From Gammaproteobacteria bacterium (GTDB taxonomy: Bacteria > Pseudomonadota > Gammaproteobacteria > SZUA-229): DNA of 64,000 nucleotides. This document shows positions 5,554-21,741 of this stretch, one piece after another. The DNA is taken from the NCBI GenBank assembly GCA_024636785.1, contig JAGXGK010000003.1, forward strand, positions 72,027 through 136,026, given 5' to 3'. Made by a program: the position numbers and the translations under genes. Below the pieces are notes generated by a model. That model saw only the letters and a program-made list of their open reading frames with translations. It made no database searches and was not told the DNA's origin. How positions within the stretch are numbered: the first letter of the stretch is position 1; each line of letters begins with the position of its first letter.

Positions 5554-6285
5554 TTACTTCTTCTTAGCCGGAGCCAGATAGGACTTGATTGGAGAAGAGG
5601 CAATGTCGTTTCCAGCCTGCAGGCCGATATAAACGAGTGCGCGAGTCGGACTGGGGCCGAAACCCGGTGAGCGTGCAACTATATTTATTTTCAGCGGCCG
5701 GCGTCCCGCCATTATTTTTATTTCTTTCTGCTGTGTCGCCAGGCTGTCGGTAAAGGGCAGCTTGAGCACATCTTCCCCGCCTATGGAAATCTCAACGGCG
5801 ATCTCGACATTGCCCGCGCCGCCGACCTCGCGCGGTGGCGTAGGCTTAATGACCAGCTGATAGAGGCCGCTCTGCGTTATCATCAATTCGCCTTCGATGG
5901 AAACCGCCGCAACCGGGTAGCGCGAGGGATCGGAACGCTCATCAAAAAAACCGCTGTATCTGTATCCGTAGTCCTCGGGATTCAGTTTAATAACCGGCCC
6001 CAGTGTCATCCGGCCTTCCCGTAACGGGACTTCGGCATCCGACTCGAAATCTGAATTTTGTGACAGCCAGTAACGGCTGGAAACGGTAGCGACTGTTATT
6101 ATTTCCGGGCCGGCGGTAGCGGCTGCTTGCACGTCTTCAGACAACTGTGATTTATTAGCCAGCCCGGCATTTTTTTCCAGGCGTTCGATACGCTGTTTCA
6201 GCTGTTCGATGCTTTCCCATAACCGCTGATCATCCTGGGCCATAACAGATGTTGAGAACATCAGCAAAAGTACAATACGCAGCAT
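5554..6285 (-). CDS. Hypothetical secreted protein with an N-terminal coiled-coil, coupled to the response regulator
   Basis: Start MLRIVLLLMFSTSVMAQDD at 6285 shares one base with the upstream stop (TAATG). I do not recognise a family. Confidence 0.6.
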   Translation of the reverse strand: MLRIVLLLMFSTSVMAQDDQRLWESIEQLKQRIERLEKNAGLANKSQLSEDVQAAATAGPEIITVATVSSRYWLSQNSDFESDAEVPLREGRMTLGPVIKLNPEDYGYRYSGFFDERSDPSRYPVAAVSIEGELMITQSGLYQLVIKPTPPREVGGAGNVEIAVEISIGGEDVLKLPFTDSLATQQKEIKIMAGRRPLKINIVARSPGFGPSPTRALVYIGLQAGNDIASSPIKSYLAPAKKK

Positions 6286-7694
6286 TATCGCTCCTCGATT
6301 TTGTAACGTTTCATTTTGCGCCACAGCGTCGACTTATCAATGCCGAGGATTTCTGCTGCCAGGGTCCGGTCACTGCCCTGTTCGCGCAGTGTTTTACGAA
6401 TAAAGTAGGCTTCAATTTCTTCCAGACTTTGCGGCGCGACAAAATCCAGCGCGCGCAATTGCGAACCGTCATCTTCAGCCAGCTCAGCCGGTAACGCCTC
6501 TTCATTGACCCGATTACCCGTTGCCATGATGGTCATGCTCAGCACCACATTTTCCAGCTCACGCACATTCCCCGGCCAGTCATGCCGCATCAATACGCCC
6601 AGCACTTTGGTGGACATGCCATTCAGTGATTTACCCAGGCGGGTGGAGTGACGACTGAGAAAAAAGTTGGCCAGCAGGGGGATATCCTGACGACGCTCAC
6701 GCAGAGCAGGCAGTGCAATATCGATAACCTTCAGTCGGTAGAAAAGATCCTGACGAAACTCTTCGCTCTTTATCATTTCCGGCAGATTGCGGTTACTCGC
6801 GGTAATCACCCGCAAATCGACCTGCTGCGCTTCGGTATCACCAATTCGGTAGTAACTGCCGTCCTGCAAAACCCGCAACAGTTTGGCCTGCAATGAAAGC
6901 GAAGCGTTGTTGATTTCATCCAGAAACAGGGTGCCGCCATTGGCCTGTTCAAGCAGGCCCGCCTTGTTTCGGTCCGCACCGGTGAAAGCGCCTTTCATGT
7001 AACCGAACAGTTCACTCTCGATAATGTTTTCCGGAATAGCTGCACAGTTGACGGCAATAAAAGATTTATCACGGCGATCGCTGAGAGAATAAATGCGTCT
7101 GGCGACCAGCTCTTTGCCACAGCCACTCTCGCCGGAAATAAGCACATTGCAATCATAAGCGGCTGCGGCTTCTATCAGTTTTTCTACTTTCGCCATGGCC
7201 AGCGACTGGCCATACAGCAACCGATATTTTTCATATGATTCAACATTGTCGCGTGAACGTAGTTGCTCGTTTTCGGTGCTGAGCTGATAGTATGCCAGCG
7301 CACGCCCCACGGTATGCAACAGCTCATCATTATCAAAGGGTTTGCGAATATAGTCGAACGCACCTGCTTTTAAAGCTTTGACTGCCGACTCCACGGTGCC
7401 ATGTCCGGTCACCATCACTACCTGTGTGCGCGGATTGGCATGGCGTGCAAAATTGAGGATATCGATACCATCAACAAAAGGCATTTTCAGATCGGTCACC
7501 ACTACCGCAACCTCTGTACCGGACTCGATCAAATCCAGCGCATGCTGGGGACTGTCCGCCGCAATCACTTCGGCATCAAGTTTGCCGATAACAGTAGCGA
7601 CAAGCTCACGCATCCGGTCATCATCCTCGGCAATAATGATCCGTGGTAACTCATCGCGGCTCGTATCAATTACGGCTTTCACTGAGTTACTCAT
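6285..7694 (-). CDS. Sigma54-dependent response regulator (NtrC/Fis family: REC + AAA+ + HTH)
   Basis: Receiver domain (IIIAEDDD...TDLKMP), Walker A GESGCGKE, GAFTGA loop, C-terminal Fis-type HTH. Confidence 0.9.
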   Translation of the reverse strand: MSNSVKAVIDTSRDELPRIIIAEDDDRMRELVATVIGKLDAEVIAADSPQHALDLIESGTEVAVVVTDLKMPFVDGIDILNFARHANPRTQVVMVTGHGTVESAVKALKAGAFDYIRKPFDNDELLHTVGRALAYYQLSTENEQLRSRDNVESYEKYRLLYGQSLAMAKVEKLIEAAAAYDCNVLISGESGCGKELVARRIYSLSDRRDKSFIAVNCAAIPENIIESELFGYMKGAFTGADRNKAGLLEQANGGTLFLDEINNASLSLQAKLLRVLQDGSYYRIGDTEAQQVDLRVITASNRNLPEMIKSEEFRQDLFYRLKVIDIALPALRERRQDIPLLANFFLSRHSTRLGKSLNGMSTKVLGVLMRHDWPGNVRELENVVLSMTIMATGNRVNEEALPAELAEDDGSQLRALDFVAPQSLEEIEAYFIRKTLREQGSDRTLAAEILGIDKSTLWRKMKRYKIEER

Positions 7695-9109
7695 TAATTT
7701 TTTACTCCTCGTAATTTCATAATAAATCGAGCGCCTTCTTTGTAGGTGCTATCCAGATCAAGCGATGCACCGCGCCGTCGCAGCATGGCCTGACTGATGG
7801 ACAGGCCCAGGCCGGTGCCTTCTCCGGCTTCTTTAGAGGTAAAGAAAGGCTCGAAGATACGGCGACGATCCTCAGCAGGAATTCCCGGGCCATTATCTTC
7901 AACCGCAAGCTCTACCCCGCGTGCACCAACACTGCGGGTGGTGATGTGAATCACACCATCCTGCCGCTCCTCAAGTGCGTGCAGTGCATTGAGCAGCAGG
8001 TTGGACAGAGCAATGTCGAGCTCGCCGCAGGGCATCTCTACAGCGGGCAGATTATCATCCAGATTGAGATGAATTTTTGTCGACTGGCGCTTCAACATGC
8101 AGGAGAGAAAAGTATCGACCAGATCCTGGATCAGCACATTAACATCACACTCCTCATCGGTACAGCTATCGCGGCGGGCGTAGCTGAGCAGGTCGTTGAC
8201 AATACGTGAACAGCGCCGGGCTTCATCAGCAATAAAATGCGAGTAACGTAATTTTTTTTCTTCATCAACATCCTCGCTGTTAAACAGCTGTGAGTAGCCC
8301 AGGATATTTCCCAGCGGTGTATTCAACTCATGCGCAATACCAGCGGCCAGCTGTCCCATCGCTACCAGTTTTTCCCTGTTATAGACGGAGTCGAGCAGCT
8401 GCTGATAATCAGTGATGTCCTGCAACGTTATTACCGCATCGACTTCGGCTTCATCTTTAGAATAAAAAGCGATATTGATTGAGATATAACGCTCCGACTC
8501 AGCGACCATGGTATGAATAACGTAATTCTCCACCGGCTGCTTATAGAGAAAGGCATCGCGTAGAGTATCGCTGTCGTGCGGTTCCAGATTGAACACATCA
8601 AACAGCATCTCGCCCAGCAATAAATCAGACTCCCGCTTGAACAATTCGACCGCCTGAGGGTTGGTATTAACCACTATAAGATCATCATCCACCGCTAACA
8701 GGGCACCCGGCATACTGCCGAGCAGGGCATCCATCTTATTGCGTTCGGTCACCACCCGATTCTGACATTCCTCCACCATGGTGAACATGGTGCTGAGGTT
8801 TTTCATCATGGTGTTGTAGTCATGTACCAATTTTTGCGAGAGCGAATCTCCATAATTGATGTCGACCAGATGGGTGAGCGCACCTTCATGCGCATCGAGC
8901 ACGGCTTCGTGCATCAGCGCCATAGTTCTACGATGCAGATACAGCATTGCCATGGCAAGCAGCAGCAGGGCTTCCAGCAAAAGCAGGCCTACGCTTTGAT
9001 ATGTCCATGAAAAATCGTTTTGCTGGATAAAAAAGATGGCAGTTGCGCAGGGAGCTGCAACAGCCATCAACAGGAGTATTTTTAGAAGTGCGTCAAACAG
9101 ATAAACCAT
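7694..9109 (-). CDS. Sensor histidine kinase (2 TM segments, PAS-like domain, HisKA, HATPase)
   Basis: H-box [12 protein letters not shown], and N/G boxes ([22 protein letters not shown]). Its stop overlaps the regulator start at 7694. Confidence 0.9.
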
Positions 9110-9247: not shown

Positions 9248-10423
9248 TTAGAAAATCATCTGCAAGCCAAGTGTTGCCTGATCATAATCCTGCAGTGCCG
9301 CATTAGTCGGATGCTGATCATTGAACTCAATCGATGCAAACTCAGCGGTCACCTTCAGCTGCTGGCCATTGATGTAGTAATTGGCCCCTACCGAATTCGA
9401 GGTCAGGTCCGAAAGGCCGGTGTTAACGCCGTAATCGATCTCTTCTGATCTGGCAAATATCTGCAAACGACCGATACCCACCGGATTCGGCAACAGATAG
9501 CCCGCTTTCACATAAGCGCCTTCACGTTCAGCCCACGGCGACAAAGTCGGATCGGGACTAACCGGGTAGCCATCCAGGCTGTAATCAAAATAGGCGGCTG
9601 AAGCCGTGACGGTGCCGAACGCATAGGGATATTCAAAGAAGATATCGTAGGTTGTCGCCTTGTAATCTTTGACATCGGTTTTAGTCGCAAAATTGCCGTA
9701 AGCAACATCGGCCTGCGAGTCAACGGAGACACCCAGAGTCAGTACCTTCTGCGTACCCAGATAGGTGCCGCGATAACCGTAGGAATATTCAGGATCAAGC
9801 AGACTGACATGGGCGCGTGCGGTCACTCGTGGTGAAGATTTCACAACATTTTCACCCTCGCGTCCATCACTGACTGAAAGGCGGTACTGGAACATGGCAT
9901 CGTTCAGATTGCCCCACATGGTCACGCCGGTATCGCGGGTTCCGCCGTAGGGTGTATAGGGCAGATTCTCACCCCGATCCAGGGTCAGTGGCTCCAGACA
10001 CGCTTCCAGGTTTTCACGACTGAAGGTGTTTTTGTAACGCCCGATAATGAATCTGAAGGCATCACTGGAATCGATGGTTAAATAGGCATCGCGATAGTAA
10101 ACGGCGCGATTATCCTGTCCGCCCTTGCTATCATTACCCGCCTCGAGCTGGGCATAGAAACCAATATAGTCATTATACTGACCAAGAAAAGTTATACGGT
10201 TGCGACGTAAGAAGCTGTCATAGACATCACCGTCATCATTGGCCGAGGTATAGCCCCGCTTCTGCGTCCAGAATTGAGCCGCGTAAGTGATCTCCATATA
10301 GCCTTCATCACCCACCTGAAAACTGGGCCCGGCCAACACCGTCTGCTGTGCGCCGAAACCGGTGAGCGCTAATGCTACCGCAGCGCATAATGAACGTTTG
10401 TAATACTGACGATTATTTTTCAT
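9248..10423 (-). CDS. Outer-membrane porin-like beta-barrel (candidate ExtI-like partner of the adjacent cytochromes)
   Basis: Signal peptide ...TVLA-GP, amphipathic strands rich in Tyr/Gly throughout, terminal LGLQMIF. It starts 15 nt after the triheme gene ends. Confidence 0.7.
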   Translation of the reverse strand: MKNNRQYYKRSLCAAVALALTGFGAQQTVLAGPSFQVGDEGYMEITYAAQFWTQKRGYTSANDDGDVYDSFLRRNRITFLGQYNDYIGFYAQLEAGNDSKGGQDNRAVYYRDAYLTIDSSDAFRFIIGRYKNTFSRENLEACLEPLTLDRGENLPYTPYGGTRDTGVTMWGNLNDAMFQYRLSVSDGREGENVVKSSPRVTARAHVSLLDPEYSYGYRGTYLGTQKVLTLGVSVDSQADVAYGNFATKTDVKDYKATTYDIFFEYPYAFGTVTASAAYFDYSLDGYPVSPDPTLSPWAEREGAYVKAGYLLPNPVGIGRLQIFARSEEIDYGVNTGLSDLTSNSVGANYYINGQQLKVTAEFASIEFNDQHPTNAALQDYDQATLGLQMIF

Positions 10424-10437
10424 TGTTATCCCCTTTA

Positions 10438-10926
10438 TTAATCTTTCTGATATTTGTCGAGCAGTGTTTTCATGTCACCGTCGCTGTGGCAATCAGCACA
10501 GCTTTTCTGCGGCTCGGTTCTCGGATCGCCGATTAGATCTTTATGCGCCATTTTTTGAAGCATCAGCCGTTCGTTACCCTGATGGCAACCCACGCAGGAG
10601 TGATTTACTTTGTTATGCTGCTCATGCCAGTCTTTCGTCGATGGCGCTGCCGCGCGTTTGTCATTATGGCACTTATAACAGGATGACAAACCGAGTCCGC
10701 AGGCGTTGGCCACGGAGATCGGAGAAGCCGTCACAATGCCCTCATGCACACCGGCCAGAACATCACTGCCCCAGCTACCATCCTCAGCCACCGGCATGCC
10801 GTTATCGGCGACATAGCCCGCATAACCCGACCATACGATCGCCACCATGGGTATGACTAAAAGTGGCAAGCCGACTTTGCGCAGCCATTTTGCCCAACCC
10901 GTTGCATTATTTTTTATCTGTTTCAT
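10438..10926 (-). CDS. Triheme c-type cytochrome with an N-terminal membrane anchor
   Basis: Three CxxCH motifs (CYKCH, CVGCH, CADCH) and a hydrophobic N-terminal segment. Confidence 0.85.
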   Translation of the reverse strand: MKQIKNNATGWAKWLRKVGLPLLVIPMVAIVWSGYAGYVADNGMPVAEDGSWGSDVLAGVHEGIVTASPISVANACGLGLSSCYKCHNDKRAAAPSTKDWHEQHNKVNHSCVGCHQGNERLMLQKMAHKDLIGDPRTEPQKSCADCHSDGDMKTLLDKYQKD

Positions 10927-11189
10927 TCTTCCTCCGAGTCTCTGTTACGAGATGATTCTAATAATTGTGTATCTTGAGCAGCACCGTTCTCATTTGTGCC
11001 CTGCTCTAATTTTTTACTCGCCTGTATATCCTTTTCACTCAGCCCTCTGGCGCACATACAAACCGGCCCGCTCTTAAACTTTAACCTGGGCGATGAATTA
11101 TCCCTGCCCTTTTCATTTGCATAGAGGGGGCTGGTCATCAACAACATGCCCAATATGATCAAAATTTTCATAAACCCCCTCTCAGCCAA
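10923..11189 (-). CDS. Small secreted hypothetical protein (same position as ExtJ)
   Basis: MKILIILGMLLMTSPLYA signal peptide. Its stop overlaps the triheme start (ATGA, 10923-10926). The real start is probably ATG 11171. Confidence 0.55.
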   Translation of the reverse strand: MAERGFMKILIILGMLLMTSPLYANEKGRDNSSPRLKFKSGPVCMCARGLSEKDIQASKKLEQGTNENGAAQDTQLLESSRNRDSEEE

Positions 11190-11313
11190 TTAGCCCCTGA
11201 CTAAAGATAATGCATATCTTATGCCAACCTGTATATATCAATACTTTCATATAGTTAGGTTAATTAGTGATTTACCTCTGCATTGCACGGGTTGCCATTG
11301 GCAGCATATGATC

Positions 11314-12528
11314 TCAATTTGCAACGCCCGGCAATGCCCGCTCAGCAGCGATGAATTCATACTCGGTTGCGCGCGTCTCCGCAATGGCCTGCTGTAACAG
11401 ATCGAGTACCACCGGCTTCAGGCTCCTGCGGTTACTGGCCAGATAGGACTCGAAAGTGAGCCGATACTGCTGACGCGGCGCGACCTGAATACGCAGGCGG
11501 ATGCTCCCCGGTTGAACCATCCCATCATGGCGGCCGCTGAGCGTGCGCGTCCGGCCTGCGGCCAGTCGGGTATCAAAAAGCTCTTCGGTCAGCGCGAGAT
11601 TAGCCTTCCAGGCGATCACGTCCCGCGCCAGCCCGGTGACCTCGCCCGCTGCATTGACATATTCAAGATGCAGCACCACTTCCGGCACCATGTAGGTGGG
11701 GAAATCATGGCCGGCGCCGGTGTTGGTGACCGCTGCCGTGGCACCGACAATATTACCCTCCTCCTGCAACCAGGTGATCTCCACCGTCAGCGCCGAGGCG
11801 GTCATGGCCGGGTCATGAATTCCCCGCCACTGGTGCTTGCGTTCAGGCATGTGACAGCTCTGGCAGTGCCTGCCTTCATCGGCAAAGCGCGTGGCGCGCC
11901 ACTGGCTATAGGTATCCTCGCGCAACTTGCCGTTCAGCCTCGGCCCGTCTTCGGCAAACTGGTGACAGTTGGCGCAGAAGCGGCTGTCGGCAAAAGCATC
12001 GTGCTCGACAAAACCGCCATGCGCGCTTTCCGTCACCGGCACACGTGCTTTTGGCCCGAAACGGGTATGGGCGCGAACGTGACAGGCGGCGCAGACCAGC
12101 CCCTGCTGGTGCAGATCCGGTGGAATATATTCCGGCGGCGGCATAGTCAATTTAGACCAGCCGCGTTGCTGCGAGAGCAAGGCCAGCTGCTCGGTCATGG
12201 GGGCGTGACAGCGCAGACAGGATTGGGCCGTTTTCGGATCGGCAATTTGCAACTGCCAGAGTATGCCCGGCCCCATGGTGTGACTGTGCAAACTGCCGCG
12301 CCACTGCTGAAACTGTTCAGCATGGCAGCTGCCACAATCCGCCGGCGCCACCGAAGCCTCCAGCGCGGAAAACTCAGCAGGCGGCTGACCCTGCGCGGGA
12401 ATCGGGTAGGCCCAGTGCTGCTCGAGAAAATCATCCACCGCAACCGGCGCCTGCTCAGCCATAAACCACCAGCCCCCCGCGAGCACCGCCAGCAGCAGCG
12501 CGATAAATCCGACCCCTTTCAGCATCAC
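11314..12528 (-). CDS. Pentaheme c-type cytochrome (periplasmic)
   Basis: Five CxxCH motifs (CGSCH, CLRCH, CAACH, CANCH, CQSCH) and an N-terminal signal/anchor. Confidence 0.85.
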   Translation of the reverse strand: MMLKGVGFIALLLAVLAGGWWFMAEQAPVAVDDFLEQHWAYPIPAQGQPPAEFSALEASVAPADCGSCHAEQFQQWRGSLHSHTMGPGILWQLQIADPKTAQSCLRCHAPMTEQLALLSQQRGWSKLTMPPPEYIPPDLHQQGLVCAACHVRAHTRFGPKARVPVTESAHGGFVEHDAFADSRFCANCHQFAEDGPRLNGKLREDTYSQWRATRFADEGRHCQSCHMPERKHQWRGIHDPAMTASALTVEITWLQEEGNIVGATAAVTNTGAGHDFPTYMVPEVVLHLEYVNAAGEVTGLARDVIAWKANLALTEELFDTRLAAGRTRTLSGRHDGMVQPGSIRLRIQVAPRQQYRLTFESYLASNRRSLKPVVLDLLQQAIAETRATEYEFIAAERALPGVAN

Positions 12529-12618
12529 CTTGCGTTACTCCCGTTGCATCGCACCCGCTAAACAACATCGCCTTCAGCCAGTGCAAAAAAATTCGATGAA
12601 AAGCTTATCATTTTACAG

Positions 12619-12650
12619 AAAAAAAAAGGCAGCCACCGAAGGGACTGCCC
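12619..12650 (-). terminator. Hairpin followed by a T9 run after the rhodanese lipoprotein gene (possible attenuating terminator)
   Basis: The ggcag...ctgcc stem has an A9 run on the plus strand, which reads as T9 on the minus strand just 3' of the stem. Confidence 0.5.
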
Positions 12651-12673: not shown

Positions 12674-14131
12674 TTAACCACCGCAGGGGTTGGCAGGTAA
12701 ACCACCGCCGGTTGTAGTACCGCCGGTTGATGTTGTACCTGTATCAACAACAATACCTTTATAGGCCAGATCTTCAACAATGATATTCTGAGCTGAACCT
12801 GCATAGGCATCAACAATAACACCGGAAGTAGTCGGTGGATCTACTGCTACGCTTTTCAGGAAGTAGTGACTGCGATCCACCGTATCTGTACGCCATGGGG
12901 AATTGACTGGCATCAGCAACTCACCATTACTGTCTTCTATCGCAGACAGTGAATGCCACTCGGTCATCGCACCATCATAGAAGCGGGTGGGCAGACCCAG
13001 AATCGCGGTTGAGGCAAAACCTGTCACCATGGCACGGTAGGTGGTTTCACAATAGGTATAAATAGTGTCACCGGACTGATAGGCGCTGCCATTACCCACT
13101 GGCTGCAGAGTAATATCAAGGAAGCCGTTGCCACCAACGTCTGTATCACCATCCACATAGGCCTGAAGTTCAGCCTTGGTTTTGTAGCTATAACCGTTCG
13201 CGGTATCAAGCAGGTTGCTAAAGTTCAGATCCAGCGCACCATTGGGATGTCCCTGAACAGGGCCAGTCTGAAAGTCACTATCGCCAGTCGGATAGTACTG
13301 ATTGCTACCGCGGGCATCCCAGATGAATACACCATCGTCCAGTATATTTATATCGGTTGTCGGAACGATATTCACCATGTCTTCCAGCGTGGCCTGCAGG
13401 GCAAAATTGATCGCCGGCAGATCTTTCACCGAGGCAGTTCCGGTTTCAGGCGCTATATCGGCAGTCGCTGACATAGAGAGCGAGTTAGGAACCCCTGCAT
13501 TCCACTCATTGCCTCCGTTCAGCACCGCAACCTGGCCTTTAAGCATGCCCCAGTAACGCAAGGTATACCAGCAACGGCCTGCTTGCATCGCCGCAAAATT
13601 GCCCGCTTTACCCTGTGCACAGACCACCATATCCTTGCTCGGATCGATATTGTATTTGGACAGGAAGGCGTCCATCATCTCACCGCTAGGTACCATGCTC
13701 TTGGTCTGCACCACGCCATTCGAGCGAAGCTCATTCACCATAGGCGCATCATAGGTAAATACACCTTGACTCGGATTAGAGGCTATATATTCATAAGTAG
13801 CAATATCACTACCCGCCTGCAGAATAATCAGTTTGCTATCGGGATCCAGACCGACCGGGCGGCTGGGTGTAACAGGATCGGACCAGTTTGTTACCCAGGT
13901 TTCCAGCGTGGCACCGGTAATCAGGCCATAGATGTTATCGTCATAGTTAGCGGCGGATGTTGTCGTCAATGACGCCGGGCTCGCCATCTCCGGCAAGGTT
14001 ACTGTCGATGAGGTATTCAACCCTATGCTGTCTTCTGTACCCGAACAACCGGCCAGAACTATCGTTGTGGCAGCTACAAGACCGACAAGGCCTCTTCTGC
14101 CGCGTTGCACTCTTATCATTTTATTCATCAC
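12674..14131 (-). CDS. Tandem rhodanese-like lipoprotein (ExtH-like) with a Thr/Gly-rich C-terminal tail ending PCGG
   Basis: Lipobox VLAGC. Two rhodanese-type active-site loops (VVCAQGKAGN, YTYCETTYRA). C-terminus ...TGTTSTGGTTTGGGLPANPCGG. Confidence 0.7.
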   Translation of the reverse strand: MMNKMIRVQRGRRGLVGLVAATTIVLAGCSGTEDSIGLNTSSTVTLPEMASPASLTTTSAANYDDNIYGLITGATLETWVTNWSDPVTPSRPVGLDPDSKLIILQAGSDIATYEYIASNPSQGVFTYDAPMVNELRSNGVVQTKSMVPSGEMMDAFLSKYNIDPSKDMVVCAQGKAGNFAAMQAGRCWYTLRYWGMLKGQVAVLNGGNEWNAGVPNSLSMSATADIAPETGTASVKDLPAINFALQATLEDMVNIVPTTDINILDDGVFIWDARGSNQYYPTGDSDFQTGPVQGHPNGALDLNFSNLLDTANGYSYKTKAELQAYVDGDTDVGGNGFLDITLQPVGNGSAYQSGDTIYTYCETTYRAMVTGFASTAILGLPTRFYDGAMTEWHSLSAIEDSNGELLMPVNSPWRTDTVDRSHYFLKSVAVDPPTTSGVIVDAYAGSAQNIIVEDLAYKGIVVDTGTTSTGGTTTGGGLPANPCGG

Positions 14132-14238
14132 TATCCTCCTACGGATCGTTTAGCCTTGAAATTCGGCACTTCTTTTACTACCTACCCTATTAGACCTTTT
14201 ACACTTGAACCGGAACTCATTATGAATCCGGTTATGCA

Positions 14239-14424
14239 TCAGGCTGATTTAATTACTATTGGAATCTCGTTATCATTCAAGTTATCCAACACTGCTGCTG
14301 CACCTGTTTCGACTGCGGTTTTTTCACATTTTCTGCCGAGTTCCTGCAGGCCTTTTTCAATCATCGACTGGAGCTGTGCATCACCCTCTCCCACGATGAA
14401 TAATCGAACGTTTTTTTCACTCAT
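14239..14424 (-). CDS. Small hypothetical protein (61 aa), third member of the mini DsrE/F/H-like set
   Basis: ATGA overlap with the upstream ORF (14421-14424). The size and position suggest a DsrH/TusB-like role, but the sequence alone is not diagnostic. Confidence 0.45.
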   Translation of the reverse strand: MSEKNVRLFIVGEGDAQLQSMIEKGLQELGRKCEKTAVETGAAAVLDNLNDNEIPIVIKSA

Positions 14425-14681
14425 ACCACGTACACCACGTCTGCGTTGACAATCATTTCCGCCAGCACCACCGGCGCGTTTTCATCGATATCGACCACCG
14501 GTACGTCGGCGAAATCGAGCGATTCGAGCTGCAATTCCACCTCGGCATCAGCACGATCAAGCTCGCCGACTACGGCGACCTGAATAACATCATCGAGCAG
14601 GGTCAAACCGGTGGCCATGCGCAGGGCTTCGGCTTTTTTGTGGCGTGCAATCATCAGCACATTTTTAATTTCATCACTCAT
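14421..14681 (-). CDS. Small DsrE/DsrF-fold-like hypothetical protein (86 aa, no cysteine)
   Basis: VLMIARHKKAEALRMATGLTLLDD is reminiscent of the DsrF/TusC N-terminal strand-helix. It is translationally coupled to its neighbours. Confidence 0.5.
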   Translation of the reverse strand: MSDEIKNVLMIARHKKAEALRMATGLTLLDDVIQVAVVGELDRADAEVELQLESLDFADVPVVDIDENAPVVLAEMIVNADVVYVV

Positions 14682-14690
14682 CGGTTACCC

Positions 14691-15005
14691 CTAAAAAACC
14701 AGCACTTTATCGCAATGACGAACCAGTTCAGCGTTCTGATACTGGCCACCCACAATCAGTACGTCTTCAAGCGCTTTCAGATCAACCTCAGGGCAGATTC
14801 GCTCGACTGAATGTTCACATACCGACAGGTGTACCCGCTGCTGGTCGGCGACGTTGATAAATTGCTCGTTCCGGATCAGGTTGACGCCGTTATCGGTGAG
14901 GAAACAACGAACATTCCAGTCTCTCGCCAGCGCTGCTTGCATGAGATCAGTCACATGCTGCGAGTGTTTTTCATCGGTGACTACCAGGCCAAAGTTCATA
15001 CTCAC
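14691..15005 (-). CDS. DsrE/DsrF-like family protein (104 aa)
   Basis: FGLVVTDEKHSQHVTDLMQAALA...VHLSVCEHS...VLVF resembles the DsrE/TusD fold, with a candidate active Cys. It overlaps the tusA-like stop by 4 nt. Confidence 0.6.
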   Translation of the reverse strand: MSMNFGLVVTDEKHSQHVTDLMQAALARDWNVRCFLTDNGVNLIRNEQFINVADQQRVHLSVCEHSVERICPEVDLKALEDVLIVGGQYQNAELVRHCDKVLVF

Positions 15006-15253
15006 CCCTTGCGGATTTTCCAGGTAGAAGAGCCGTCACTATCCTGACGATCAAACACTTCGTTGCCTTCGCTTTCGCACATCGACAGGATCGATTCACC
15101 CGATGAGGGGTTGTCGAACATCAGGGTCAGTTCATCGCCTTCGGAAAGTTTTTGCAGCGCTTTTTTGGTGTACATCTGGGGATGCGGACAGACGTAGCCG
15201 GAAACATCGAGCTGATAATGTCCGTCACTGATTTTGTCAAATTTGATTGCCAT
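15002..15253 (-). CDS. TusA/YeeD/YedF-family sulfurtransferase
   Basis: The CPxP motif (YVCPHPQMYTKKAL), its length, and its position directly downstream of yeeE. Start taken at MAIKFDK. Confidence 0.8.
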   Translation of the reverse strand: MAIKFDKISDGHYQLDVSGYVCPHPQMYTKKALQKLSEGDELTLMFDNPSSGESILSMCESEGNEVFDRQDSDGSSTWKIRKG

Positions 15254-15318
15254 ACACTTAATACCTCTATTCATTAATTACAAATTGTCTGTAATGCGCT
15301 GCACCTGGCAGGCATTGT

Positions 15319-16764
15319 TTAAATATTGAATTCGTCATCCTCGGTTCGCCATTCAATCCACATGTTGAATGCCTTCACACCCAGCAGACCACCCAGGGTC
15401 ATGCCCGCCAGGAATATCCAGCCGCTCAGGTCGCCGTTGGTGACGGCGGCGAAGAAGGCACCGACGTTACAGCCCATGCCGACGCGAGCGCCGATACCCA
15501 TGAGCGCGCCACCAACCAGGGCGAAGGTGGCGGTTTCAATGTTCGGGACTTTCCATTTGAATTCGCGACGCGTCAATGCCAGCACCGCAGCACCAAGAAT
15601 AATGCCGACTGACATCCACAGCGGTGCATTGACCAGCGGATTAGGCAGACCATTGATCAGGCCGAAGAAAATGTTGTCTCTGGTGTCTCTGCCCAGGCCT
15701 TCAAGTATCCAGCCACCGAGCTGTGCTTCCTGCGTGGTGATGTACCAGTAGCCGGGGTCGAAAACCGTCAGGTTCATCGACAGGCCATCGGTATGGCCCA
15801 TCTTTTCCAGAAGCGTACCAAAGTTGTCTATGTTGTAGTACTCACGCAAGGCACCGGTGACCCACATTTGCAGACCGGCGAACACACCCAGGCCGAGACC
15901 GGCGAGCGCGGTGTTTTTCGATGCCGTCATCATTGCCCAGAAGCCTCGCATTTCATCTTTCATGCCGGGTGAGGCGAGCTTGAGTCGGCGAACATAACCT
16001 TTGCGGTAGGTGGTGAGGTAAAGCACGATAAGCACGGCGATAGTCGGCAGAATGGCCCCCAGCAGTGCGTTACCGATAAATACATCAAACCAGACATTAC
16101 CAGTATCGAGCGACTGGGCGACGGTGCCGCCGGAAAGATCCCAGATGTAACCGGCATTGAACAGGTCGAACCAGCCATTGGTAGCTGAGAGCTCTTCCGG
16201 CATGCCTTTGTCTACGGCCGAAGCGACCCAGCTATCGGGCGCGAAGGCATTGGACCAGCTGCCCATATCGACAAACAGCGCCTGCGAAAATGAAATACTA
16301 ACTAGCACCAGCATCGAACTCATATTGCCTTCGCCGCTTTTATACAGCGAGCCGGAGGCGCAACCGCCGGCGAAGACCATACCAAAACCAAAGATCAGGC
16401 CGCCGAAAATAATATGCCAGCCCAGTGGATTGGCATGAAACGTACTATATCCGCCCACCGTCACCATCCCCGCGGTAATGGAAAACAGTGCCGTGGCGAT
16501 CATCACGCCCACCGCCATACGCGGCACCTTCACGGCAAACAGATCACGCACCGCCGAGGCCATGCAGAAACGTCCGTACTGCAACAGCACGCCGTAGGCG
16601 AGACCAAACCAGACATATACCAGCAGATAAATCCAGCGCGTGTCCATCGCCAGTACTACCACTGATAAAACCGCCACAGCAGCGATAATAAACATTGCTT
16701 TATAGCCACCTTCATGAGCAAACGTACTGGGGGTGCTCACTGCTTGCGTTGCATCTGTACTCAT
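15319..16764 (-). CDS. YeeE/YedE-family sulfur-compound (thiosulfate/selenium-associated) transporter, unusually long
   Basis: Duplicated half-motifs with conserved Cys (FAGGCASGSLYKSGEG; GMGCNVGAFF) and many TM segments. At 481 aa it is longer than the roughly 350 aa I recall as typical. Confidence 0.85.
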   Translation of the reverse strand: MSTDATQAVSTPSTFAHEGGYKAMFIIAAVAVLSVVVLAMDTRWIYLLVYVWFGLAYGVLLQYGRFCMASAVRDLFAVKVPRMAVGVMIATALFSITAGMVTVGGYSTFHANPLGWHIIFGGLIFGFGMVFAGGCASGSLYKSGEGNMSSMLVLVSISFSQALFVDMGSWSNAFAPDSWVASAVDKGMPEELSATNGWFDLFNAGYIWDLSGGTVAQSLDTGNVWFDVFIGNALLGAILPTIAVLIVLYLTTYRKGYVRRLKLASPGMKDEMRGFWAMMTASKNTALAGLGLGVFAGLQMWVTGALREYYNIDNFGTLLEKMGHTDGLSMNLTVFDPGYWYITTQEAQLGGWILEGLGRDTRDNIFFGLINGLPNPLVNAPLWMSVGIILGAAVLALTRREFKWKVPNIETATFALVGGALMGIGARVGMGCNVGAFFAAVTNGDLSGWIFLAGMTLGGLLGVKAFNMWIEWRTEDDEFNI

Positions 16765-16815
16765 ATTTTTCTCTTCTACTCTCTCGCTTCAATAAACGGT
16801 TTTAAAAACCGGCGG

Positions 16816-17202
16816 TTATTCTTCTCGACGCACATAAATGTGCCAGTTACCCTGCCTCTGTACCGTACCCAGATGCCTGCCTTCATAAATATCCATCATT
16901 GAAGGTATGGTTTCGACCACCGACAGATTGTCAGTAATCACCTCTATCACCACCCCCTTCGGATTGTCATTCAAAGCCTTTAGCGTCAGCAACTGAGGTC
17001 TCGGGCATCCTTCACCTTCACAGGCCACACGGCATCCCACCTCTATTATTCCGTGCCCCGGCAACTCGACCTGATCTGATACCTTCATACAGGCGCGATG
17101 CCGTTTTGCAGGAACCACATCCAGATTAAGGTGAAATAGATTTGATAAAAACATACGCATCTCTTTGAATCGTTGTTTTACATTATGCATCTTCCATGCC
17201 AT
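16816..17202 (-). CDS. TusA-family sulfurtransferase with an uncertain N-terminal extension
   Basis: GEGCPRPQLLTLKALNDNPKGVVIEVITDN... is the TusA CPxP core. The true start may be ATG 17088 (MKVSDQ). Confidence 0.65.
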   Translation of the reverse strand: MAWKMHNVKQRFKEMRMFLSNLFHLNLDVVPAKRHRACMKVSDQVELPGHGIIEVGCRVACEGEGCPRPQLLTLKALNDNPKGVVIEVITDNLSVVETIPSMMDIYEGRHLGTVQRQGNWHIYVRREE

Positions 17203-17820: not shown

Positions 17821-18228
17821 CTAACGAGCAGTACCAAAACTCTCATTTTCGGTATGGGTTGGAACAGACAATCCTGCAATACGCATCCCTTGTGCCACAG
17901 GGCCTTCTGGAAACAGCGTATGTAAATATTCACGACCGCCCTGCTCAGAAAATGCCTCATCAAGCATGTCGCCAAGTTCACGACCATTTTCAGCCTGGCC
18001 ATTATCCAGATAATAATCCTGCAACTTCTGTATTACTTTAAAATGCGCGTCGGTGAGCTCTAAGCCCTCTGCCGACGCGATTTCTCTGGCTCGATCCTCA
18101 TCCCAGGCCTGCAACTCCTGCTCACGCCCTGTGCGCTGCTGGCTCGCAATATCTGTATCGACACTTCTATCCATCATCTCAACAGCCTCAGCCTCGGGAG
18201 ATGTGGATTTTTTTTCATAATCAGTCAT
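17821..18228 (-). CDS. DsrC/TusE-like protein lacking both conserved cysteines
   Basis: ELTDAHFKVIQKLQDYY...YLHTLFPEGPVAQGMRIAGLSVPT matches the DsrC/TusE core. The protein has no Cys at all and ends PTHTENESFGTAR where PTGCV would be expected. Start at ATG 18228 follows AGAGGA. Confidence 0.75.
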   Translation of the reverse strand: MTDYEKKSTSPEAEAVEMMDRSVDTDIASQQRTGREQELQAWDEDRAREIASAEGLELTDAHFKVIQKLQDYYLDNGQAENGRELGDMLDEAFSEQGGREYLHTLFPEGPVAQGMRIAGLSVPTHTENESFGTAR

Positions 18229-18833
18229 AATATTTTTCCTCTTTTTAATTACTATTTTATAAAGATAACAGAAAACCTGCCTCATTAAAATTTTGATGCG
18301 CTGACACTTAAAAATCATCTAGAGATATATTAGGACCTTTTAACGTACCAACATTATAAATTTTACGTTCAGAATCTCGCCTTCATACTTAATAATATGG
18401 AAATTTTAACACTCCTCATGCAAGAGTAATAAATCACAATTTTGTGGTTGATTTTTAACAGCATTTATAATTCTTACTTATGCTGCACATTTTATATGGT
18501 AATAACACATTCATAAAAACAGAATGACAGTGGCTGACTGTTTTCTGATTTAGCCAGACAATGAACCATTCGCTGCCTGGCAGATAAAAGCAAAAGAAAT
18601 CTGATTAACAAAAAACGCTTTAACCGGTGATCGACTGCCGGCCAAAACAAAGCGGCGCTCAGCCTAAAAATGCAATTAATTTATTGTTTTTCAGAGGAAA
18701 AGTTAAGCGGTGAATCAAGTCGAGCCTGATCCCCTTCTGCCCCACATCCCCGTCATTCTGGCGCAGGCCGGAACTCAGATGCTTGACTGCGATATTTAGA
18801 ACTTATTAGCGTAATTAATTAAAAAATGGAACG

Positions 18834-18922: not shown

Positions 18923-20191
18923 TCATTCCAGTTTATTTATGCCCATCATTTTAAGAAGATAGCGTTCATACAAAGGTTCTGTATACCCCTTTCTCATCTT
19001 TCGAATAAAATATTTTTCAAATCCGATTTTCGCCTGGTGCACCCACTTACCTTTTTTGAACCAGGTCACATTGCGTGGCGGTATTTGTGGTAAAGCTACA
19101 AAAGCGGCACCGGTATCACCCATGTCGGCCAGACAGATAGCATTCCAGGTACCACAGGTTTCAGGTGCTTCGCCCGCGATTTCGTGCGCAATATTATGCA
19201 CAATAGCGGTTGCCATAGTTTCAATCATGTAACCTGTTTTGGGTGCGCCGGTGGGTACCGGTGTGGCTTCAACCGGTGGGATTGCCACGCAGACTCCCGC
19301 AGAATAAATATTCTTATATTTAGGATTACGCTGGTATTCATCGATCAGGACGAATCCACGTGGATTGCATAAGCCTTCAACTTCCGCAACGGCATCAACG
19401 CCTTTGAAGCCTGGCAACATCATTGAGTAATTAAATGGCAGTTCATGCTGTTTTTTAACGTTACCATCATCATCCAGTTCATCTACAAACATCATGCCAT
19501 CTTCAACTTTCGTTGTTTTTGCGTTGGTGATGAATTTTATATTATGGTTGCGTAGATCACTTTCCAGCATGCCTCTTGAATCACCCACACCAGCCAAACC
19601 CAGATGGCCGATATATGGCTCCGATGTGACGAAAGTCATCGGTACTTTATTGCGCATTTTCTTTTTGCGCAGAACACAATCAAGAATAAATGCAAACTCA
19701 TAAGCGGGACCAAAACAGCTGGCGAAAGGCATGGCGCCGATAATCACCGGGCCGGGGTTTTCGACCAGCCTGTTGAAATCATCTAATGCAGTGACCGCAT
19801 GTTCAGTGCTGCAAACAGATGAGGTGAAACCTTCGGGGCCGGAACCCGGAATCTCTTCAAAAGCGAGTCGGGGGCCGGTGGCAATGACGAGATAATCATA
19901 ACCGACTGCTTCGCCCTCTTTTAACTCCAGCCGGTTATTTTCAGCATCAATTTTAGTGACCCGATCCTGAATAAAATTGATGCCTTTTTTAGCCAGTATC
20001 GATGACAGCGGTACAGTAACATCTTTCTGGGTACGCCAGCCAACCGCGACCCATGGGTTCGAGGGCGTGAACTGGAAATGATCACGTTCATTAATAATGG
20101 TGATCTGGTGATCCTTACTCAGGGTTTCTCTCATTTCGTATGCACAGGGCAATCCCCCTACACCGGCTCCTACTATGATGATACGTGCCAT
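18923..20191 (-). CDS. sqr: Sulfide:quinone oxidoreductase
   Basis: Closely parallels the Acidithiobacillus-type SQR sequence from memory along its whole length: GAGxGG, FQFxPSNPWVxVGW, three conserved Cys including SCFGPAYE and GLCNP, and the C-terminal amphipathic helices. Confidence 0.9.
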   Translation of the reverse strand: MARIIIVGAGVGGLPCAYEMRETLSKDHQITIINERDHFQFTPSNPWVAVGWRTQKDVTVPLSSILAKKGINFIQDRVTKIDAENNRLELKEGEAVGYDYLVIATGPRLAFEEIPGSGPEGFTSSVCSTEHAVTALDDFNRLVENPGPVIIGAMPFASCFGPAYEFAFILDCVLRKKKMRNKVPMTFVTSEPYIGHLGLAGVGDSRGMLESDLRNHNIKFITNAKTTKVEDGMMFVDELDDDGNVKKQHELPFNYSMMLPGFKGVDAVAEVEGLCNPRGFVLIDEYQRNPKYKNIYSAGVCVAIPPVEATPVPTGAPKTGYMIETMATAIVHNIAHEIAGEAPETCGTWNAICLADMGDTGAAFVALPQIPPRNVTWFKKGKWVHQAKIGFEKYFIRKMRKGYTEPLYERYLLKMMGINKLE

Positions 20192-20239: not shown

Positions 20240-20255
20240 AGCAAGGTTCAGGCCA
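20240..20255 (-). promoter_or_regulatory. Sigma54 (-24/-12) promoter for sqr
   Basis: The minus strand reads TGGCCTGAACCTTGCT, so GG and GC have exactly the consensus spacing (TGGCAC-N5-TTGCW). It lies about 50 nt upstream of the sqr ATG, with GAGAGGA as the SD. Confidence 0.75.
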
Positions 20256-20421: not shown

Positions 20422-21741
20422 ATGAGCTCAACCAAAATTTCAAAAGAAGCCATCGACAATCCCTCGTTTCTCGATGGCATGCTCAATAGCTACAGCAACC
20501 CGGCGGTTTTGATGAATCGGGATTACGTCATCGTCGCCGCCAACGAGGCGTACCAGAAACAATACGGCTTCAAAGTCGACGGCAAAAGCCATTGCTATGA
20601 AATATCTCATCATTATAAAAAACCCTGTGATCAGGAGGGCGAGACCTGTCCATTAAAACTGTGCCTGGAAAGCAACTCGGCACAACGCTCTCTCCATGTT
20701 CACCACACTGAATTCGGTGAAGAACACGTCGACGTCCAGCTCAGCCCGATCCACGACGAAAAGGGGGAGATAAAGTTTTTTCTGGAAACCATGGCATCGG
20801 TTAAATGTGCCAGCACCAAACCTCAGGCTGAAGGTTTGGTCGGTCGCTCCGTTGCCTTTAATACCGTCATTGAAATGGTGCAGCGCGTCGCTTGCAGTGA
20901 CGTCAACGTTTTGCTGCAGGGCGAATCCGGCACTGGTAAAGAGCTGGTGGCTGAAGCTATTCATACAGCCAGCCGCCGAACCAAGGGACCATTCGTCCCC
21001 GTGGATTGTTCAGGACTGACTGAAAACCTGTTTGAAAGTGAATTATTCGGACATGAGAAAGGCGCTTTTACCGGCGCGCAATCGCGAAAAATTGGCCTGG
21101 TTGAGGCTGCCAGTGGTGGCACTTTATTTTTAGATGAAACCGGTGATATTCCACTCAACCTACAAACCAAGTTACTGCGCCTGATCGAGACCGGAACATT
21201 CCGGCGGGTCGGCGGTGTTGAGCCCTTAAAAGCGGATTTCCGCCTGATTTCGGCAACGCACAGAAATTTAAATCTGATGATCGAATCCGGCGAGTTCAGG
21301 AAAGATCTGTATTACCGCATCAGCGCCTTTCCCCTGCATTTGCCCACATTAAGGGAACGCAGCGAAGACATTCCGTTGTTAGTTGAATGCATGTTAAAGC
21401 GATATTATCCTGAAGAAAAAATACGCATGTCCGAACCGGCGCTAAAACAACTTCAGCAATATCCTTTTCCGGGAAACATCCGCGAGCTGTGCAACATCGT
21501 ACAACGCGCCACATTAATGGCCGATGGCGATGTTATAGAAACCCAGCATCTTCCGGATGAATGCGCCACAGAAATCGACAATAAAGACAAAGCCTGCTTT
21601 TCTGATTTGATCAGCCTGAAAGAACTGGAAAAACGGTATTTGGAATGGGCCATGAAACGCGTTGATAACAAAACCGAACTGGCGAAAAAACTCGGCGTCA
21701 GTGAGCGCACTTTATACCGGAAACTTGAACTGCTGGAGTAA
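20422..21741 (+). CDS. Sigma54-dependent transcriptional activator with a Cys-rich PAS-like sensor domain (FisR-like by context)
   Basis: Walker A GESGTGKE, GAFTGA, C-terminal HTH. The N-terminal domain has clustered Cys (HCYEISHHYKKPCDQEGETCPLKLC). It is transcribed divergently from sqr. Confidence 0.85.
   Translation: MSSTKISKEAIDNPSFLDGMLNSYSNPAVLMNRDYVIVAANEAYQKQYGFKVDGKSHCYEISHHYKKPCDQEGETCPLKLCLESNSAQRSLHVHHTEFGEEHVDVQLSPIHDEKGEIKFFLETMASVKCASTKPQAEGLVGRSVAFNTVIEMVQRVACSDVNVLLQGESGTGKELVAEAIHTASRRTKGPFVPVDCSGLTENLFESELFGHEKGAFTGAQSRKIGLVEAASGGTLFLDETGDIPLNLQTKLLRLIETGTFRRVGGVEPLKADFRLISATHRNLNLMIESGEFRKDLYYRISAFPLHLPTLRERSEDIPLLVECMLKRYYPEEKIRMSEPALKQLQQYPFPGNIRELCNIVQRATLMADGDVIETQHLPDECATEIDNKDKACFSDLISLKELEKRYLEWAMKRVDNKTELAKKLGVSERTLYRKLELLE

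Follow-up and report, generated by a model that had tools for sequence, protein, structure and literature searches.

Conserved linkage of a YeeE/TusA/DsrE-like gene set with ExtH/ExtI-type envelope genes in a gammaproteobacterial genome and its relatives

Results

The window analysed here is a 64,000-nucleotide (nt) stretch of contig JAGXGK010000003.1 (assembly GCA_024636785.1) from a gammaproteobacterium of the GTDB lineage SZUA-229. Positions 14239-17202 of the window carry six open reading frames (ORFs) for two TusA-like proteins, a long YeeE and three small proteins, and the genes downstream of them encode a rhodanese lipoprotein, two c-type cytochromes, a small exported protein, an outer-membrane porin and two regulators. 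On balance, with confidence a little above even, we regard 14239-17202 as the cytoplasmic and inner-membrane half of a single conserved locus of 13 genes and about 11 kb, which runs from 17.2 to 6.3 kb on the minus strand. An ORF check of the window showed that all six ORFs are present on the minus strand, and the identifications and coordinates given in the initial annotation for a CPRP-type TusA, a 481-amino-acid (aa) YeeE, a CPHP-type TusA, the small ORFs and a 107-nt gap behind them were borne out. Orthologues of the six ORFs are conserved in the same order in dozens of genomes, and by this comparison the ORFs are real genes and not chance reading frames.

The first gene, TusA-1 (ORF 17202..16816), matches PF01206 at 41.7 bits and encodes a GCPRP motif. 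Its true start is probably the ATG at 17160 and not 17202, because 17160 precedes the conserved N-terminus M.M/LF.NLFH and a sigma-54 element overlaps the 17202 start. It is followed by the gene for a long inner-membrane sulfur channel of the YeeE/YedE family (16764..15319, 481 aa; PF04143, 148.6 bits) and by TusA-2, a YeeD/TsuB-like YeeE partner (ORF 15274..15002; PF01206, 64.3 bits; VCPHP motif). TusA-2 probably starts at 15253 (83 aa), and the DsrE-like subunit encoded next (ORF 15005..14691, 104 aa) probably at 14999 (102 aa); on an identical public contig, TusA-2 is called as 83 aa and the DsrE-like protein from 14999 with 102 aa. Chp1 (14681..14421, 86 aa, no Cys) and Chp2 (14424..14239, 61 aa), which overlap by 4 nt, have no family match. 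By gene content and order, the five genes from YeeE to Chp2 are a YTD cluster, also described as DsrEFH type II, a module that is itself already known: the YTD cluster consists of a yeeE/yedE-related gene, tusA, a dsrE-like gene plus a pair of conserved hypothetical genes, and has been put forward to mark sulfur disproportionation (PMC9751629, PMC12998232). The DsrE-like protein thus corresponds to the YTD 'DsrE' and is a candidate DsrE type II, with Chp1 and Chp2 as candidate DsrF type II and DsrH type II, respectively. Downstream of TusA-2, gaps and overlaps within the YTD set are at most 10 nt, and the spacer between Chp2 and the next gene, ExtH, is 107 nt.

This next gene (14131..12674, minus strand, as are all those that follow) encodes an ExtH-like rhodanese lipoprotein with matches to NF040901 and PF00581. 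It is followed by Cyt5, a pentahaem c-type cytochrome with a C-terminal beta-domain (12528..11314), an 82-aa small exported protein without a family match (11171..10923), Cyt3, a membrane-anchored trihaem cytochrome (10926..10438), and an ExtI-family outer-membrane porin (10423..9248), which scored 353.6 bits against NF040900, well above the cutoff of 150. A PAS histidine kinase (9109..7694) and a sigma-54-dependent response regulator of the NtrC class (7694..6285) come last; in the type-A loci of the survey described below, the kinase likewise follows ExtI and the regulator follows the kinase.

The conservation of this arrangement was surveyed in one genome per GTDB species by an ExtI alignment scan, which yielded 60 loci that were then mapped by tblastn. 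The sample reaches ExtI relatives of at least 51% identity, and Geobacter-type clusters lie outside it. Loci with at least 7.5 kb upstream and at least 4 kb downstream of ExtI were taken as assessable, and 42 loci qualified. The results showed that the long YeeE and TusA-2 occur together with ExtH, Cyt5, Cyt3 and ExtI in all 42 assessable loci, and that the 11 ExtI loci without a YeeE match all end at a contig edge. A reverse look-up covered seven contigs, six reached via YeeE homologues of 64-79% identity (P0105 from Thioalkalivibrio thiocyanodenitrificans, P0040 from Thiohalophilus, and P0009, P0053, P0058 and P0112) and one (P0121) via a protein identical to the window ExtH; the P0121 contig matches the window locus exactly, long YeeE included. 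In all seven contigs the relay genes adjoin rhodanese and cytochrome genes, and in six of the seven ExtI is present as well. The adjacency is therefore not unique to the window genome, and the physical fusion that the initial annotation had called unusual is the rule for this porin clade. The remaining contig of the seven, L066 (8301-12428), retains the relay genes, both cytochromes and the regulators, with ExtI and the long ExtH absent and two rhodaneses of about 310 aa instead.

The gene order differed among the loci. A colinear arrangement was found in 29 assessable loci and in five with a shorter flank, from Thiohalophilus, Thiohalospira, Thiohalobacter, Thiogranum, Thioalkalivibrio, Thiobacillus, Hydrogenophilus, Sideroxydans and Burkholderiales, and a divergent arrangement in three loci. 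In L031, L038 and L067 the YTD genes and ExtH come after the regulators; no ExtH homologue was detected in L031, and in L038 and L067 ExtH has moved with the YTD genes. A compact form, found in eight or nine loci from Cellvibrio, Solimonas, Moraxellaceae and relatives, consists of ExtH, the small protein, Cyt3, ExtI, YeeE, TusA-2 and Cyt5, with TusA-1, the DsrE-like set and the regulators absent from the tblastn map. Most host genomes in the survey belong to sulfur oxidisers, among them Thioalkalivibrio, Thiohalophilus, Thiohalobacter, Thiogranum, Thiobacillus, Hydrogenophilus and Sideroxydans. The linkage outlasts four gene orders, including the insertion of YeeE-TusA inside the Ext genes, and is therefore strong evidence of functional coupling; the earlier suggestion of one pathway across the cytoplasm, periplasm and outer membrane gains support from it.

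The window YeeE has the PF04143 (Sulf_transp) domain and the three transport-path Cys, with C67, C135 and C432 matched to Cys-containing motifs in Spirochaeta YeeE (6LEO) and conserved to at least 95%. The two halves of 6LEO are covered by residues 53-184 and 364-458 of the window protein, and residues 185-363 correspond to 6LEO 133-219. Compared with YeeE from E. coli or Spirochaeta, the protein has about 130-140 additional aa; in the alignment to 6LEO, about 45 aa of this extra length form an N-terminal extension and about 90 aa separate the halves. The initial annotation had reported a YeeE about 130 aa longer than usual, with extra sequence between its halves, and the alignment agrees with both points and adds the N-terminal extension; the length itself is the norm of the subfamily, the best 120 of 2069 YeeE homologues all having 458-506 aa. 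The inserts are conserved, for example VFDPGYWYITTQEAQ at 334-348, which is at least 95% conserved in 46 sequences including those of heterotrophs. The YeeE scored below every NCBIfam subfamily cutoff of the TsuA, YedE/FdhT and YedE models (NF052577, 109 bits versus 400; NF041049, 83 versus 645; NF033796, 144 versus 350; TIGR04112, 57 versus 200). Judged by sequence, the long YeeE is a distinct, large and conserved subfamily, of which its length is typical. TusA-1 and TusA-2 both combine the PF01206 match with a CPxP motif (CPRP and CPHP). The best NCBIfam match of TusA-2 is TsuB/YeeD, below the cutoff, and TusA-1 orthologues of 96-165 aa lie upstream of YeeE in related loci.

The order YeeE-TusA-DsrE-like-Chp1-Chp2 is conserved in 43 loci. 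For the YTD cluster, the DsrE-like protein, Chp1 and Chp2 have been predicted to form a DsrEFH-like heterohexamer (PMC13047784), and the complex, named DsrEFH type II and located with tusA and yeeE, transfers sulfur in vitro via a conserved Cys67 (PMC13293266); this Cys67, in cable bacteria numbering, is the functional Cys of the DsrE subunit. In the published survey, Pseudomonadota account for 21% of subtype 1, in many cases together with oxidative dsrAB (YTD/DsrEFH type II literature). The window DsrE-like protein matched PF02635 in a full-length alignment at 20.5 bits, under the gathering threshold of 22.7, and nine of 16 orthologues matched the same family (best E 7.7e-6), which is consistent with a divergent PF02635 member. 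Its Cys63, within CE(H/L/M)S, is invariant in all 16 aligned orthologues and provides the conserved DsrE-subunit Cys that characterises DsrEFH type II; the protein also has a GGQYQNAEL motif.

Chp1 was found in 43 related loci. A positional orthologue of Chp2, 60-81 aa long and with a conserved end ..LDxL....PVVxK, follows Chp1 in most type-A loci; about five picks in this orthologue set are wrong-frame ORFs. Neither Chp1 nor Chp2 showed similarity to any family in Pfam, in PDB-sequence profile searches or in hhalign, and profiles of the three small-protein families against PDB sequences, together with hhalign between the families, revealed no DsrEFH/TusBCD relationship. A concatenated DsrE-like+Chp1+Chp2 protein query returned no homologues, and a search for host genera and sequence motifs in the supplements of PMC13293266 gave nothing usable to tie the window family to DsrEFH type II subtype 1. 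The initial annotation had described three DsrE/F/H-like ORFs; by sequence similarity this applies to the first only, the other two having none that was detectable. Chp1 and Chp2 are candidate DsrF/H-like proteins on the basis of synteny and of the published structure predictions for YTD (PMC13047784, PMC13293266).

The ExtH-like protein has a LAGC lipobox, an active-site loop C360-ETTY-R, a Gly/Ser/Thr linker and a C-terminal NPCGG. It scored 116.8 bits against NF040901 (cutoff 200), and is thus a homologue with a Cx4R loop and an ExtI neighbour, and not an equivalog. Among 120 ExtH-like homologues, the lipobox is present in 108 and a C-terminal CGG in 102, almost all the others ending in CG; the tail is kept in every surveyed locus from which a full-length protein was recovered, including the heterotroph form. 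A sample of 150 representatives of the ExtH family (50% identity clusters) showed three tail types, namely CGG (with one exact GGCGG), GGGGGC and no tail. Two proteins above the equivalog cutoff (357 and 290 bits), which are of the Geobacter type, have the GGGGGC tail. Because both the CGG-type proteins and the GGGGGC-type equivalogs carry a terminal Cys, a flexible Gly-rich tail with a terminal Cys is, by these alignments, a feature of much of the ExtH family. In the compact locus of Cellvibrio mixtus (L053), a tandem-rhodanese gene (5940-6758, minus strand; 272 aa; PF00581, 106 bits) lies divergent from ExtH.

Cyt5 has five CxxCH motifs and ten Cys in total, leaving no non-haem Cys, and the same holds for most of 60 orthologues. 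It scored 33 bits against NF040886 (cutoff 250) and weakly matched Thermochromatium c552 (5ZE8) and MccSep (9WT8, E = 0.004). By these matches Cyt5 is a member of the broad pentahaem (PHC) family discussed for ExtKL (PMC11976967), and a relative of ExtKL/MccSep and c552. The polysulfide reductase of Geobacter is defined by a haem-ligating Cys239 together with Sec325 (10.1101/2025.11.18.688581, now PMC13510729). Cyt5 was also considered as a Cys-type polysulfide reductase of the MccSep kind, and this was rejected, there being no Cys beyond the five haem motifs.

Cyt3 has three CxxCH motifs and, in 61 of 61 orthologues, an extra Cys seven residues before the first of them (ANACG[LM]GASSCF[KR]CH). 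As in TsdA, SoxAX or MccSep, this Cys may ligate a haem or act as a reactive thiol. A conserved segment, RLKF(K/R)xGPVCxC..GLSE.DI, is present in the small exported protein, whose tail is charged and little conserved; in position the protein corresponds to ExtJ. The extra Cys of Cyt3 and the CxC of the small protein are candidate reactive sites. The gene set does not have the make-up of an Mtr/Pcc porin-cytochrome conduit, as its sole lipoprotein is the rhodanese and its cytochromes have three and five haems, with no lipobox noted.

A sigma-54-type -24/-12 element, TGGCATGGAAGATGCA (TGGCAT-N5-ATGCA), lies upstream of TusA-1 at 17201..17186 (minus strand), and a second, TGGCATAAGATATGCA, at 11226..11211 (minus strand), before the small protein, Cyt3 and ExtI genes. 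Elements of this type were surveyed across the loci with at most two mismatches, GG and GC being fixed; shuffled sequence gave about 0.02 per locus. The results showed such elements upstream of TusA-1 in 25 of 42 loci, of ExtH in 13 of 52 and of the small protein/Cyt3 in 32 of 62, and directly upstream of YeeE in none of 51. Within the whole window, sigma-54-like matches were not above chance (37 found versus 45.7 expected), and for this reason the promoter claim rests on position across loci and not on the window alone.

An intrinsic-terminator-like GC-rich hairpin followed by T9 lies 3' of ExtH (12650..12618, minus strand). A comparable hairpin with a T-run follows ExtH in 28 of 51 loci; the corresponding counts are 0/43 after Chp1, 1/59 after Cyt5 and 2/51 after YeeE, and 0-6 overall after other genes. 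In Thioalkalivibrio thiocyanodenitrificans (L001), a group II intron-type reverse transcriptase (RVT_1 + GIIM; 15205-16404) stands between ExtH and the pentahaem gene, at the site where other loci have the terminator-like hairpin. Straight 3' of the Chp2 stop lies a stable hairpin without a U-tract (14238..14200, minus strand), and the 107-nt spacer folds with -26.6 kcal/mol (z = -2.8); placed between the relay genes and ExtH, the hairpin may have a processing or stabilising role.

Because of the terminator after ExtH and the second sigma-54 promoter before the small protein, cytochrome and porin genes, the locus probably comprises more than one transcription unit. The predicted units are TusA-1 to ExtH; Cyt5, for which no promoter was identified; and a unit from the small protein to the regulator, with Cyt3, ExtI and the kinase between them. 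Those units for which a promoter was identified are predicted to have a promoter class in common, with the sigma-54 activator encoded in the cluster. The initial annotation had named independent transcription units with unrelated regulation as an outcome that would speak against one system; multiple units are indeed predicted, yet their promoter type and activator appear to be common.

Upstream of the relay genes the window encodes a DsrC/TusE-family protein (17821-18318, minus strand; PF04358, 76 bits), directly adjacent to them, whose C-terminus (..GLSVPTHTENESFGTAR) lacks both Cys that make DsrC a sulfur acceptor. Further upstream lie an SQR-like flavoprotein gene (18923-20191, minus strand; 422 aa) with its own sigma-54-type element at 20255..20240 (minus strand) and, divergent from it, a gene for a PAS-domain sigma-54 activator without a receiver domain (20422-21741, plus strand). 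The tblastn searches gave no match to the SQR-like/PAS-activator pair in any related locus, and the upstream SQR-like and DsrC-like genes were rejected as parts of the conserved unit, with no tblastn match in any of these loci. At the other end, a 256-aa protein without a family match (5554-6324, minus strand) overlaps the end of the response-regulator gene and recurs 3' of the regulator in several loci (L003, L016-L019 and L060).

Discussion

The reading that we prefer, with a confidence just past the midpoint, is that the locus serves to bring reduced (sulfane-type) sulfur present outside the outer membrane to the cytoplasm, where it feeds cytoplasmic oxidation. The gene identities, the conserved residues, the invariant linkage and the recurrence of promoter and terminator elements are observed; where the proteins lie, which substrate is handled (elemental sulfur (S0), polysulfide or persulfide versus thiosulfate or selenium), in which direction it moves and what the haems do are inferred. 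ExtH, at the outer membrane beside ExtI, would bind sulfane sulfur on Cys360 and/or its tail Cys. Cyt5, Cyt3 and the small CxC protein would process or shuttle the sulfur, the two cytochromes supplying or removing electrons for S-S bond chemistry in the envelope. A soluble or protein-bound sulfur species would then reach the long YeeE and cross the inner membrane, TusA-2 as the YeeD-type partner would take the sulfur on its CPHP Cys, and TusA-1 with the DsrE-like/Chp1/Chp2 complex would relay the protein persulfide to the oxidising enzymes. The PAS histidine kinase and the sigma-54 activator at the end of the locus would switch on the sigma-54 promoters of both halves. The shorter core of heterotrophs would function in assimilation or detoxification. 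The resemblance of the ExtH tail to the carrier arm of SoxY, in which the Cys of the C-terminal GGCGG is an established sulfur carrier (PMC6067878), is an analogy only.

Several points weigh against this reading. The type-B hosts Cellvibrio and Solimonas are not known to be lithotrophic sulfur oxidisers, and in them the locus would have another role, such as assimilation or detoxification. Cyt5 is without the Cys/Sec active site of MccSep, so that an enzyme for S-S chemistry was not identified in the locus. In NCBIfam, ExtH and ExtI carry the name of 'selenite/tellurite reduction operon' proteins, and the best NCBIfam match of YeeE is the selenium-linked YedE/FdhT (143.7 bits versus a cutoff of 350). 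The linkage survey is bounded by its identity limit and is silent on Geobacter-type clusters. The tie of Chp1/Chp2 to DsrF/H was supported by none of the profile, PDB and hhalign comparisons made, and single-sequence AlphaFold2 (run without an alignment) gave a predicted local distance difference test (pLDDT) score of 39 for the DsrE-like protein and 38 for Chp1, too low for the models to be used.

The names given by NCBIfam, which extend to ExtM/N/O/S, bring in a selenium/tellurium system as an alternative that we consider unlikely, in which ExtH, ExtI and the cytochromes reduce selenite, and the YedE-like channel and TusA/YedF-like proteins take up selenium for selenoprotein or selenouridine synthesis or for detoxification. 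[quoted passage not shown] Selenium is rated below sulfur because the family scores are far under their cutoffs (28.6 and 35.1 bits versus 79 for YedF, besides the YedE/FdhT score), because neither selD and selA nor other selenium-utilisation genes were seen in any neighbourhood examined, and because the Geobacter cluster is placed in S0 respiration: that is the role of ExtKL, and the proposed mechanisms cover both selenite and polysulfide (10.1101/2025.11.18.688581). Moreover, the DsrE-like set belongs to a sulfur transferase family (PMC13293266), and most hosts are sulfur lithotrophs. On the question of sulfur versus selenium, the evidence leans to sulfur.

The direction of transport cannot be read from the sequence, and several host genera have been reported to place sulfur deposits outside the cytoplasm. 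Sulfane sulfur that arises in the cytoplasm or periplasm might be exported via YeeE and ExtI and then deposited outside the cell or detoxified there, ExtH acting on the lengthening sulfur chain; we hold this outward system to be improbable, somewhat more so than the selenium system. Sulfur import is the function of the characterised YeeE/YeeD and SoxT proteins (PMC11582611; PMC11073785 as cited in PMC13047784), TusA and DsrEFH hand sulfur on toward cytoplasmic oxidation (PMC13293266), and no sulfane-sulfur generator is present in the locus. That the cluster is a porin-cytochrome conduit for extracellular electron transfer to metals or electrodes, merely lying beside an independent thiosulfate-assimilation pair and relay, is very improbable: Cyt5 and Cyt3 do show faint matches to MtrC/MtrF-type domains, but the cluster has no surface-exposed multihaem cytochrome, only three-haem and five-haem proteins and a lipoprotein that is a rhodanese, chance adjacency does not explain a YeeE-TusA linkage that is invariant through rearrangement, including insertion inside the cluster, and the terminator position groups ExtH with the relay genes.

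The inward sulfur pathway can be extended to a broader proposal, which we put forward tentatively and think less likely to be right than wrong. The locus type would then be the missing route into the cell for insoluble or extracellular zero-valent sulfur, by way of a surface rhodanese with a SoxY-like Cys arm acting at or through ExtI, a haem-Cys site, a CxC shuttle, YeeE and TusA/DsrEFH-II. If this holds, the seven-gene core (ExtH, the small protein, Cyt3, ExtI, YeeE, TusA and Cyt5) would be a portable module that supports lithotrophy in oxidisers and assimilation in heterotrophs, and sulfur respiration in Geobacter would be served by the same ExtH-ExtI front end.

Each half of the locus is known, and what is new is a combination of known systems and not a new kind of system. 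No paper treating both ExtI/extHIJKL and YeeE/TusA/DsrE was found in the searchable literature, nor was any earlier account of the invariant linkage and the portable seven-gene core, of the shared sigma-54 control, of ExtH as the last gene of the relay operon or of the conserved ExtH tail. The words cytochrome, porin and rhodanese are all absent from the text of PMC13293266. The locus touches two open questions: how outside or periplasmic sulfur reaches the cytoplasmic Dsr or sHdr oxidation systems, and how polysulfide or S0 crosses the outer membrane, which the authors of the MccSep study call unresolved. The linkage of the rhodanese/porin pair with YeeE-TusA(-DsrEFH type II) offers a concrete candidate pathway that is testable genetically, and cultured carriers include Thiohalobacter thiocyanaticus, Thioalkalivibrio thiocyanodenitrificans, Cellvibrio mixtus and Solimonas. 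The use of YTD as a marker of sulfur disproportionation is also affected, since the gene set is widespread, in another context, in aerobic or denitrifying Gamma- and Betaproteobacteria.

The published YTD cluster and the window set are identical in content and order, both having a DsrE-like gene with a conserved Cys followed by two small hypothetical genes. However, the published YTD is a five-gene cytoplasmic and inner-membrane unit, mainly of Desulfobacterota and Nitrospirota, whereas the window set has an extra upstream TusA and is joined to ExtH, ExtI, the cytochromes and a sigma-54 two-component system. The YeeE/YeeD pair (TsuA/TsuB; 6LEO, 8J4C), which imports thiosulfate according to PMC11073785 as cited in PMC13047784, resembles the window pair in fold family, in the three Cys and in the adjacent gene for a TusA-like partner. 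Unlike TsuA, the window YeeE is about 140 aa longer, with two conserved inserts and the N-terminal extension, scores far below the TsuA cutoffs (109 versus 400 and 83 versus 645), and is set in an envelope-spanning locus. SoxY and ExtH both have a Gly-flanked C-terminal Cys at the end of a flexible segment, which reads GGCGG in SoxY and NPCGG, GNACGG or GGCGG in ExtH-like proteins; the two are unrelated in sequence and fold, and in ExtH the tail is carried by a rhodanese lipoprotein.

The closest parallel for the envelope half is the Geobacter ext cluster, which is required for S0 respiration via ExtKL/MccSep and for which the outer-membrane route of polysulfide is stated to be unknown by the authors (10.1101/2025.11.18.688581; PMC13510729). 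Geobacter extHIJKL(MNOPQS) (PMC6148476, PMC5877670, PMC13510729) and the window both encode a rhodanese lipoprotein, ExtI, a small exported protein and a pentahaem cytochrome of broadly the same family, and the Gly-rich ExtH tail with its terminal Cys is common to the Geobacter-type and window-type proteins. In the window, by contrast, the gene order is different, ExtM/N/O/P/Q/S are absent, ExtH does not reach the equivalog cutoff, neither the haem-ligating Cys nor the Sec/Cys of Geobacter ExtKL is found in the pentahaem protein, and a trihaem protein with an extra Cys is present. The YeeE/TusA/DsrE-like genes are attached in the window, whereas YeeE/TusA are listed in none of the published descriptions of the Geobacter cluster (PMC5877670), and the hosts of the window type oxidise sulfur, whereas Geobacter respires it.

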